Positions 1,357 to 23,683 of a DNA stretch of 32,811 bases are shown one piece after another (the first letter of the stretch is position 1; each line of letters opens with the position of its first letter). Position numbers and translations under genes: made by a program. The stretch comes from a virus (lineage: Duplodnaviria; Heunggongvirae; Uroviricota; Caudoviricetes), in the IMG/VR virus record IMGVR_UViG_2563366806_000002. The stretch is one strand, 5' to 3'. The notes under the pieces were generated by a model. That model ran no database searches, was not told the DNA's origin, and saw only the letters and a program-made list of their open reading frames with translations.

Positions 1357-1378
1357 ATGTGATCTAAACTCCGTGATA

Positions 1379-1398
1379 TTGGATTACATGTAATCCAA
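1379..1398. promoter_or_regulatory. Perfect 20-bp palindrome TTGGATTACATGTAATCCAA in the C/cox divergent control region; candidate operator
   Basis: Read directly from sequence; lies in the 120-bp gap between the divergent repressor and cox starts. Confidence 0.5.
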
Positions 1399-1476
1399 TT
1401 CGTGACGTAGTACACCCGCCAATATAAGCAGGTGTAAGCCGAAATAAGCGCCTAGCGCCAGTGGGGATTATGACAC

Positions 1477-2463: not shown

Positions 2464-2895
2464 ATGTTTGGCATGTTCAAGAAAAAAACTGCTGCTGTAA
2501 AAGTTGAATTAAAGAAAGTTGAAAATCGCGATTTGATGGAGGCCATTGTTGGTGGCTGTCTGCTGGTTGCTGCTGCTGATGGTGAAATTGAGAAAGAGGA
2601 AACCGCAAAGCTCGATCAGCTGCTGCGCTCCAATCCCCGCCTGAGCCATTACGGCAACGAAATCACCGCACTGATCACCCGTTTCACTGAACAGCTTGAG
2701 GCAGGTTTTCGCGTTGGTCGCATGAACATCCTGCGTGAAATCGAAGATATCAAAAACGACCCGAAAGAAGCGGAGGAAGTCTTCGTCAACATGCTGACCA
2801 TTGCCGAATCTGACGGCGAGATCGAGCCGGAAGAACAAAAGGTACTGGAAGAGGTTGGGCGTCGTCTGGGCCTGCGCGTTGAGGATTACATCTGA
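2464..2895 (+). CDS. TerB-like (tellurite-resistance TerB family) protein
   Basis: 143 aa with two DGEIE(K/P)EE repeats typical of TerB-like helical proteins; RBS AAAGGGG upstream. Confidence 0.5.
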   Translation: MFGMFKKKTAAVKVELKKVENRDLMEAIVGGCLLVAAADGEIEKEETAKLDQLLRSNPRLSHYGNEITALITRFTEQLEAGFRVGRMNILREIEDIKNDPKEAEEVFVNMLTIAESDGEIEPEEQKVLEEVGRRLGLRVEDYI

Positions 2896-3077
2896 TGAGC
2901 CAGATGCTGAGCATGTTGCGGCCCGCGCTGGTTCTGCTGCTGGCTTTCATGGTGGTAGCGGTGGACTTCACCAGTTATCTGCTCTCAGCAGTAGGCGATC
3001 TGTTCTTCGTGGGGGCGCTCGTTGTTCTGGTATGGCCTGCAATTAAGCCAGCCAAAGAGCAGCAGGGCGACGAGTAA
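2895..3077 (+). CDS. Small hydrophobic membrane protein, translationally coupled to the TerB-like gene
   Basis: 60-aa ORF, two hydrophobic stretches; start overlaps the upstream stop (TGATG). Confidence 0.45.
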   Translation: MSQMLSMLRPALVLLLAFMVVAVDFTSYLLSAVGDLFFVGALVVLVWPAIKPAKEQQGDE

Positions 3078-3624: not shown

Positions 3625-4566
3625 ATGATTCGATCACTACTCAAATGGCCCGGTGGCAAAAGCCGCGTGATGCCTGAATTACTCCCGCATTTACCAAAGG
3701 CTGGTTGCCTCGTGGAGCCTTTTGTTGGCGGCGCTTCCGTGTTCCTCAATACCGATTATCGCCGCTATATCCTTGCGGATATCAACCCAGACCTGATCCG
3801 CCTTTATCGTGAGGTGAAGAGCAATCCTGAGCTGGTTATTGACCTTGCCCGCCCGCTCTTTGCGACCGGCAATTCCAAAGAGGAATACTTACAGAACCGC
3901 CGCATTTTCAACGGTACTAAAGGCTTGCTTGATGTGGCCCGCGCGGCTCTGTTTCTTTACCTCAACCGCCACGGCTACAACGGCGTGGTGCGTTACAACC
4001 AGAGCGGCGGTTATAACGTGCCGTTTGGTCAGCATAAAAGCGCGCCTTACTTCCCGGAGGCGGAGATCCGGCAGTTTGCTGAGAAGGCCAACGACACCAA
4101 AGCCATTTTCTTGTGCAGCTCGTTTCAAAATACCCTCAAAGTGATGGTTGGAACGGATGAAGCCATCTACTGCGATCCGCCATACCTGCCTGCCAGCGAA
4201 ACCGCCAATTTCACTCAATACCACACCGAGCCATTCACCGAGCAGCACCACCGCCAGTTAGCGGCGGAGCTGCTGGAAGTGAACCGCAAATATGGCGCGC
4301 CGGTTGTCATTTCCAACAGTGACACCGAAACCACCCGCGAGATTTACCACCGTTTCCGCCTGCATGAAATCGACGTGCAGCGCTCTGTTAGTACTGACGC
4401 CAGCAACCGCCAGAATGCTAAAGAGGTGATCGGCGTTCTCAAGGTATGCGAAGGGTGCGGGCGCGCGGGCGGAGGCAACTGCCCGGACTGCGGGCCGTGC
4501 TGTGGTGATGCCACTTACAACGCGATGGTTGCAGCGGGCGCTTTTGATGAGCAAGGGGGTTTCTGA
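3625..4566 (+). CDS. dam: Dam-family N6-adenine DNA methyltransferase with Cys-rich C-terminal tail
   Basis: Strong similarity to E. coli Dam (LKWPGGK, CLVEPFVGGASVFLNTD, LFLYLNRHGYNG, DPPY motif); extra tail CEGCGRAGGGNCPDCGPCCGD. Confidence 0.9.
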   Translation: MIRSLLKWPGGKSRVMPELLPHLPKAGCLVEPFVGGASVFLNTDYRRYILADINPDLIRLYREVKSNPELVIDLARPLFATGNSKEEYLQNRRIFNGTKGLLDVARAALFLYLNRHGYNGVVRYNQSGGYNVPFGQHKSAPYFPEAEIRQFAEKANDTKAIFLCSSFQNTLKVMVGTDEAIYCDPPYLPASETANFTQYHTEPFTEQHHRQLAAELLEVNRKYGAPVVISNSDTETTREIYHRFRLHEIDVQRSVSTDASNRQNAKEVIGVLKVCEGCGRAGGGNCPDCGPCCGDATYNAMVAAGAFDEQGGF

Positions 4567-23225: not shown

Positions 23226-23555
23226 TTAACGCCCTTTCGCGTAGAAGGCTCCACCTTCAAAGCCATAGTTACAATGAGCAACGAAACCTGTTTTCGTCCA
23301 GTTAGTTGCGCCCCACATATTCCCACCACCAAAACCGCCGTCATATACAATCACTACGTCTGGCTCCTGCGTAAAAGGAATGGGGAAAGTCACATTTGTA
23401 GATACCGCCGCGGCGTTAGTCGGGAAATTAATTCTTCCCCACTGTTCAATTGAACCATCAGGCAATTTTTGCCAGCCAGATCCTGATGAATAAGCTGACA
23501 TGTCTGGTATCTGATTCGCCCCAGTCCCCACATTCCTTTTCGCCGCTTCTCCCAA
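23226..23555 (-). CDS. Start-less alternative tail-fibre C-terminal cassette (Hc')
   Basis: Gly-rich fibre-tip-like 109 aa; begins exactly at the shared GLGE junction found in H; no ATG or RBS of its own (track start is TTG). Confidence 0.7.
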   Translation of the reverse strand: MGEAAKRNVGTGANQIPDMSAYSSGSGWQKLPDGSIEQWGRINFPTNAAAVSTNVTFPIPFTQEPDVVIVYDGGFGGGNMWGATNWTKTGFVAHCNYGFEGGAFYAKGR

Positions 23556-23572
23556 ACCAACCTTTGATAGAA
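23546..23572 (-). repeat. Partner inversion crossover site at the 5' edge of the Hc' cassette (minus strand TTCTATCAAAGG-TT-GGTTTGGGAGAA)
   Basis: Perfect inverted copy of the 15-bp core in H. Confidence 0.6.
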
Positions 23573-23683
23573 GCTACAGCACCGCCATAAATGACCGTGC
23601 TGCAGCACGGTTAAAAGTGACGGTGCCCGATGATTTCGGTACCACACTGCCAACAATGAACGTGTTGGCCATAAAAAATAAAG

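Follow-up and report, generated by a model that had tools for sequence, protein, structure and literature searches.

A perfect 22-bp palindrome, probably one unit of a paired repressor operator in the immunity region of a P2-like prophage

Within the C family of phage repressors, operators have been located experimentally only in P2, P2 Hy dis and Wphi, and in all three phages they are described as direct, non-palindromic repeats (PMC1904268). [quoted passage not shown] P2 C is a symmetric dimer; in the published model each repeat is occupied by one dimer, whose identical helices read different sequences (PMC2995052). The P2 C-DNA model of Massad et al. was templated on the P22 c2-DNA complex, the helix spacing being equal at 26 Angstrom (PMC2995052). 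No description of palindromic operators for C-type repressors was found in the literature searched, the definition of coliphage classes IV to VII lying outside that search. Seven coliphage immunity classes were reportedly defined by Karlsson et al. in 2006.

The window (the whole stretch of DNA analysed, 32,811 bp) has at its left end the regulatory region of a P2-like (Peduoviridae) prophage, the features of which are collected in Table 1. The gene order is that of a P2-type switch: int and C lie on the minus strand, and cox comes first on the opposite strand. The C protein, too, is of the P2 type in its single-domain size and its homology to P2 C: phmmer matched residues 5-102 to the P2 C structures 2XCJ and 2L49 (E = 2.5e-22), and tblastn gave 49.5% identity to P2 C. 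At 2464-3077 the early operon also contains a gene for a TerB-family protein (PF05099, 58.8 bits) and, behind it, a small hydrophobic ORF, which bears the annotation DUF3927 in related E. coli prophages. A D12-class N6-adenine methyltransferase with a Cys-rich C-terminal tail (PF02086, 216 bits) is encoded at 3625-4566, and the TerB and DUF3927-type ORFs, placed between fil and this gene, have the look of accessory cargo.

Table 1. Features of the switch region, in window coordinates
Feature	Position	Strand	Basis and remarks
int, tyrosine integrase	1-981	minus	left end of window
C, immunity repressor gene, P2 C family, 102 aa	1048-1356	minus	ORF, phmmer and tblastn
Predicted Pe -35, TTGTTT	1341-1346	plus	top plus-strand PWM candidate; inside C codons 4-6
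O1, TTGGATCATATGTGATCTAA	1348-1367	strand-neutral	imperfect palindrome, 8/10 symmetric; related 20-mer
Predicted Pe -10, TAAACT	1365-1370	plus	PWM; 18-bp spacer to -35; predicted start ~1377-1378
C Shine-Dalgarno, GGAG	1369-1372	minus	read from sequence; 12 nt from ATG, between O1 and O2
O2, perfect 22-mer palindrome, ATTGGATTACATGTAATCCAAT	1378-1399	strand-neutral	dyad extension of the 20-bp core 1379-1398
Mosaic junction	1413-1416	strand-neutral	BLAST match starts; alignment A1
Candidate Pc -10, TATATT	1421-1426	minus	PWM score only 5.0; a weak candidate
TAAGC x3, candidate Cox boxes	1425, 1435, 1445 (1425-1449)	plus	exact 10-bp phase
cox, 93 aa	1477-1758	plus	Pfam PF10743 Phage_Cox, 83.4 bits vs cutoff 27.5

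Alanine scanning identified helix 3 of P2 C (residues 31-39) as the recognition helix (PMC2995052). Its equivalent here reads ANNLKNYES, compared to YGTLSYYES in P2, and of the five positions of helix 3 that touch DNA according to the P2 structure, four are different. With these changes, and with a C protein only about 49% identical, the immunity specificity very probably differs from that of P2, as the initial annotation had supposed. No C protein more than 54% identical was present in a collection of 50,697 phage records. The exact protein is encoded on 513 Enterobacterales contigs, always under a generic HTH name, and three complete E. coli chromosomes, ECONIH4 among them, match the 801 bp around the switch at 100% identity. 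In a relative with 92% identity, E. coli EcPF16 (L003, 647-883), the RefSeq C gene measures 237 nt (78 aa) and the palindrome is intact; the protein cluster also includes several members of 78 aa. Possible reasons for these shorter forms are a truncation, a different start or an artefact of annotation.

The palindrome sits in the 120-bp gap between the C homologue gene and the Phage_Cox gene, and it is the longest perfect one in the window. It had been described as a perfect 20-bp palindrome about 25 bp from the repressor start. The 20-bp core, TTGGATTACATGTAATCCAA at 1379-1398, is exact and consists of two TTGGATTACA half-sites; the perfect symmetry runs on to 22 bp, and the distance from the start of the palindrome to the first base of the C start codon (CAT, 1354-1356) is 23 bp, so that the earlier estimate was a fair one. 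In 300 first-order Markov randomisations, the expectation per window was 0.007 palindromes of at least 22 bp and 0.05 of at least 20 bp, and the palindrome is therefore not a chance feature. The second-longest perfect palindrome of the window, ACCGTGCTGCAGCACGGT, has 18 bp (23594-23611; about 0.18 expected per random window) and is located inside or beside small minus-strand ORFs (23390-23656).

A related 20-mer, missed in the initial annotation, lies nearer to the repressor gene. This sequence, O1, is identical to the core of the palindrome, O2, at 16 of 20 positions, with a start-to-start spacing of 31 bp. It is the sole other 20-mer in the window with six or fewer mismatches to the palindrome; the number of 20-mers expected at four or fewer mismatches is 0.00 per window. 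All four half-sites of the two units (TTGGATTACA twice, TTGGATCATA and TTAGATCACA) match TTRGATYAYA. The pattern was derived from these same four sites, and its informative part is the absence of further copies: none was found elsewhere in the 32.8 kb, where 0.32 were expected. The window thus contains no distal operators, and specifically no distal copies like FL and FR of phage 186.

O1 includes the C start codon, fills the spacer of the predicted Pe promoter and extends over the first half of its -10. Two symmetric GATC sites are found in O1, one per half-site (1351-1354 and 1361-1364), where O2 has GATT. They are not strictly kept in relatives, as L013, L014, L018 and L020 each have only one of the two. 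Given this difference between the units, and the methyltransferase encoded by the prophage itself, Dam methylation could act differently on repressor binding at O1 and at O2. The reverse complement of 1362-1369 is GTTTAGAT, an exact copy of the 8-bp half-site of P2 O1 and O2; its distance to the C start is almost that of P2 O1, and its orientation is opposite. The core of the half-sites, TTrGAT, also resembles the P2 core TTAGAT. Both resemblances may reflect a common ancestry of the operators.

Promoters were predicted with a PWM, for which P2 and Wphi served as a check. The annotated Pe of P2 was the top candidate and the annotated P2 Pc -10 ranked second on its strand; in the Wphi record, where no Pe is annotated, the PWM picked TTGACA/TATATT, the pair read as Pe by eye. 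At the locus studied here, the Pe candidate had the highest plus-strand PWM score at an equal position in the window and in six of six relatives (TTG(T/C/A)TT, 18-bp spacer, TAAACT), and it aligns with TTGACG-18-TAACAT of Enterobacter phage phiT5282H. Predicted Pe is weak, its -35 being TTGTTT, and a simple sigma-70 consensus scan of positions 1000-1800 yielded no promoter. The -10 hexamer TAAACT is invariant in alignment A2. This conservation has two possible causes, because the hexamer overlaps the Shine-Dalgarno of C on the opposite strand. PWM candidates for Pc vary among lineages, and the position retained in Table 1, which by its location is the best counterpart of the P2 Pc, is not clearly conserved; the gap between the -10 of Pe and that of the candidate Pc is 50 bp, compared to 49 bp in annotated P2.

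The region had been called a divergent control region for C and cox. This is true of the genes, which diverge across the gap, but Pe and Pc, by analogy with P2, are probably placed face to face, which would put the palindrome in the overlap of their transcripts. Since any Pc must be situated to the right of the C Shine-Dalgarno, the palindrome is very likely contained both in the leader of the C mRNA and in the overlap of convergent transcripts. Relative to the predicted Pe transcript, O2 extends from about +1 to +22. The two 20-bp units flank the predicted -10 of Pe, 31 bp apart (31 to 32 bp in relatives), which would correspond to the layout of a P2-type operator.

Judging from the sequence comparisons, it is quite probable that the 22-bp palindrome is the O2 unit of an O1/O2 operator pair belonging to an uncharacterised immunity class of the P2 C type. 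One symmetric C dimer would bind to each unit, both recognition helices reading the half-site TTrGATyAyA. A distance of 31 bp between unit centres amounts to three helical turns, which would bring two dimers to the same face of the DNA and allow cooperative, DNA-bending binding as described for P2 C and Wphi C. With O1 lying over the spacer and partly over the -10, and O2 just downstream, occupancy would block Pe; cox and the early operon would then be off, lysogeny would be maintained, and superinfection immunity would be operator-specific. Transcription of the C message would run leftward and begin at a Pc beyond 1399. High levels of C should also damp C synthesis, since both units would be part of the leader or the start of this message. 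Cox would act elsewhere, probably on the phased TAAGC boxes over Pc.

Two proposals of the initial annotation bear on this model. The palindrome was thought to be a dimeric operator, and this is very probably correct, given the exceptional dyad, the phased second copy and the co-segregation with C that is described below. It was also taken as a departure from the direct-repeat type of P2 C, and this reading finds no support: the palindrome is itself directly repeated, as two 20-bp units, and is not a lone site standing in for the direct-repeat layout of the family. The symmetric binding mode would be an extrapolation from the crystal-structure model, the characterised family members being described as binding non-palindromic repeats.

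Conservation was assessed in relatives whose C proteins are 94, 85, 84, 82, 68, 62 and 54% identical to that of the window. Their sources are Klebsiella and other Enterobacteriaceae, a Logan assembly, Yersinia enterocolitica, Lelliottia, Serratia liquefaciens, a further assembly and the Citrobacter phage Shae_phiSM. In alignment A2 (eight lineages, C identity 54 to 100%), O1 and O2 were the best-conserved non-coding blocks, with a mean column identity of 0.94 for O1 (1348-1367) and 0.92 for O2 (1379-1398), compared to 0.75 between the units, 0.55 at 1399-1420 and 0.68 to 0.73 further right. The signal at O1 is confounded, since the unit overlaps the first three codons of C and the conserved block runs on into the adjacent Shine-Dalgarno. 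TACATGT at the dyad centre is invariant, and the spacing between the centres of O1 and O2 is 31 or 32 bp in all lineages. In L013 and phiSM the symmetry of O2 is degraded (16 to 17 matches out of 20 to the O2 of the window), so perfect symmetry is not required.

The recognition helix is conserved along with the units. All C proteins of the group have (A/S/Y)N(L/I)(K/R)NYE in helix 3, whereas P2 has YGTLSYYE, Wphi LGTVKNYE, phiT5282H AGTQKYYE and the ECONIH5 type AGTQKHYE, and with these other helices go other repeats at the O1 and O2 positions. A search of IMG/VR with the 16-bp core retrieved 10 contigs, 6 of which are int-C-cox loci where the core precedes a C homologue by 25 to 26 bp; in the other four the match looks fortuitous. 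With the 18-mer core, genome contigs (596 Gb) gave five matches, none in enterobacterial species representatives and all in unrelated phyla (Granulicella, Balneolaceae, Pseudanabaena, SAR86 and Flavobacteriaceae); about nine were expected by chance, and this search is uninformative.

The same alignments bear on an alternative in which the palindrome acts mainly as RNA. It would then form a stem-loop of 9 bp, either where the Pe transcript begins or in the C mRNA leader immediately before the Shine-Dalgarno, or in both, and would control stability or translation. Folding of the element in isolation gives -7.6 kcal/mol (z = -2.4), the predicted Pe start would put the hairpin at the 5' terminus, and the element is within the predicted overlap of the convergent transcripts. 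However, not one compensatory double change was found across 13 distinct sequences, departures from the palindrome being one-sided or pair-breaking, and shuffled controls equalled the observed alignment in the covariation test. L013 and phiSM each break three pairs, and no Rfam match was obtained in 900-2000 at E <= 1. An RNA function would also leave unexplained the phased second copy at 31 bp (16/20) and the co-variation with the recognition helix of C. We consider this explanation unlikely; a hairpin could arise as a secondary effect of an operator palindrome.

The comparison with other immunity classes separates one half of the switch from the other. On the right side of the mosaic junction, which is a sharp one, the window shares 90 to 95% identity with phages and prophages that belong to other immunity classes; on its left side, the region that includes C, O1 and O2 is unrelated to theirs. 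The match starts at 1413 in phiT5282H and at 1416 in each of the 10 E. coli genomes listed as sharing the cox half only, and 37 further records hold a partial match only. In phiT5282H, ECONIH5 and MS57-2, Cox is 98 to 99% identical and C only 51 to 53%, and the palindrome is absent. At the positions of O1 and O2, phiT5282H has paired repeats of its own (GGTAGGGATCTCTACC / GGTGGTAATCTCTACC) and ECONIH5 has CTGGGTCTCATTTGATACCAT twice, with one base different. The converse situation is encountered at the Yersinia locus L014, where C is 84% identical, an unrelated 76-aa gene occupies the place of cox (17% identity), and the perfect 20-mer is kept. It is likewise kept at the IMG/VR locus L037, where C is 60% and Cox 43% identical and the spacer on the right is entirely different.

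Of the available arguments that C, and not Cox, would be the protein that reads the palindrome, this natural exchange of modules is the strongest. Each repressor gene stays linked to its own sites, and thus the two halves of the switch, C with its operators on one side and the candidate Pc, the Cox boxes and cox on the other, appear from these comparisons to be exchanged independently among phages. The 76-aa ORF of Yersinia enterocolitica (L014 and L015, at 350-580 in each) had no Pfam match and is preceded by AAGC repeats with a 10-bp phase. The lytic regulator or excisionase may have been replaced here by a non-homologous gene.

The putative Cox targets are on the other side of the junction. 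In P2, the cox-boxes TTAAA(G/C)NC(A/C) are spaced by 10 to 11 bp and overlap Pc (PMC3936717). The TAAGC repeats of the window lie on the cox side of the junction and travel with cox across immunity classes, and the AAGC periodicity is retained in relatives (alignment A2); three boxes are evident, compared to at least six in the P2 sites. These repeats, rather than the palindrome, are probably the targets of Cox.

Binding of Cox to the palindrome, which had been suggested earlier, does not agree with the distribution of the two elements, since the palindrome is absent beside a nearly identical cox, is present where the cox gene is unrelated, and tracks the C gene. P2 Cox at high concentration does extend its footprint from Pc toward Pe (PMC3936717), but proteins of the Cox type recognise direct repeats in phase, which are found separately here. 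A role as a core promoter element may be considered with this alternative, along with binding of a host factor: TGTAAT, present on both strands of the palindrome, matches the -10 consensus at five of six positions, and in L020 it scores as part of a minus-strand promoter candidate. However, TGTAAT does not have the critical A at position 2, and the window offers no acceptable -35. As a group, these explanations appear improbable, even more so than the RNA hairpin. Inspection by eye found no fit to Ogr-type TGT-N12-ACA, CRP (TGTGA in O1) or IHF sites. As for a functionless palindrome arising by chance or surviving as a neutral relic, palindromes are somewhat more frequent in intergenic DNA of low GC content than in average sequence, but this reading is effectively refuted by the randomisation expectation, by conservation across genera while the flanks diverge, and by the duplication of the element as O1.

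The preferred reading, a pair of symmetric C operators, can now be placed among the described systems. Wphi, a P2-like coliphage of immunity class III, comes close in layout: it has a C homologue of about 100 aa, the same order of int-C and cox, and two direct repeats about three turns apart (34 bp, compared to 31 bp here), the first lying in the spacer of Pe immediately before the -10, and the second past the start. Its units differ, being 10-bp sequences described as non-palindromic (TATTGGTGAC), whereas those of the window are 20-bp dyads, O2 a perfect one. The C protein of Wphi is only about 48% identical, the recognition helices differ, and the Wphi -35 is outside the C coding region, whereas it is predicted to be inside here. 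P2 shares the protein family and fold, the switch logic with Cox and an operator flanking the -10 of Pe. However, its O1 and O2 are two copies of the 8-bp, non-palindromic GTTTAGAT, 22 bp or two turns apart, and the helices of its dimer must read different sequences, whereas identical half-sites are available to be read here.

Repressors of the P22 c2 and 434 type resemble the prediction for this locus in placing one symmetric HTH dimer on each dyad of about 20 bp. They belong by sequence to another protein family, have a RecA-cleavable C-terminal domain and use three operator units; a second repressor competes for these operators, whereas Cox is predicted to have separate sites of its own here. 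Phage 186 is P2-like, with inverted repeats at the early promoter and face-to-face promoters. Its CI repressor, unlike the C protein of the window, has about 192 to 196 aa and two domains, is unrelated to C in sequence, forms a 14-mer wheel, uses the distal sites FL and FR, and needs CII. A switch of the 186 CI type does not agree with the 102-aa P2 C homologue, the absence of distal sites in the window and a lytic regulator of the Phage_Cox type.

What sets the locus apart from P2, P2 Hy dis and Wphi in its layout is the symmetry of the repeat units, O2 being a perfect 22-bp palindrome and O1 symmetric at 8 of 10 pairs. We made a quick survey of C-cox spacers in other classes (L002, L005, L025, L026 and L029, that is, phiT5282H, the ECONIH5 prophage, PhiR44_2, SEN5 and L-413C), with units of about 16 to 21 bp. 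Paired units with internal dyad symmetry, 31 to 34 bp apart, were found in all of them: in the class of phiT5282H and SEN5 (14/16), in the ECONIH5 class (14/16), in PhiR44_2 (ATGCC-N6-GGCAT twice) and in L-413C (CCTATATAGG, one copy of which is inside an 18/20 dyad); the units of P2 and Wphi are not symmetric. Since several uncharacterised classes have dyad-symmetric units, non-palindromy may be a property of the three phages studied and not a defining character of the family, and on this sampling of spacers symmetric operator units may be common in the C family and not special to the window.

A broader generalisation would be that repressors of the P2 C family recognise dyads of about 16 to 20 bp, one symmetric dimer per site, and that the repeats of P2 and Wphi are degenerate, derived forms in which only one half of each site is still recognisable. 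We advance it tentatively, as an idea with somewhat less than even chances. If it were true, the symmetric form would be seen in its clean state in the class of the window, where the dyad is perfect over 22 bp.

P2 C is cited as unusual because it is a symmetric HTH dimer that acts on non-palindromic direct repeats, and the structural mode of reading was left open in 2010. The switch analysed here is otherwise a conventional one of the P2 type; its layout was already known, and the novelty is the dyad symmetry of each repeat unit. The palindromic units of this class, together with similar partial symmetry in at least four other unstudied classes, suggest that the 'direct repeat' description is incomplete. 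A naturally symmetric operator would be a substrate suited to co-crystallisation and to half-site genetics. The proposed assignment would also delimit the operator and its module (boundary ~1413-1416) for an immunity class not represented by any isolated phage in the reference collection, and would thereby help to predict superinfection immunity among the P2-like prophages of E. coli, Klebsiella and Enterobacter.
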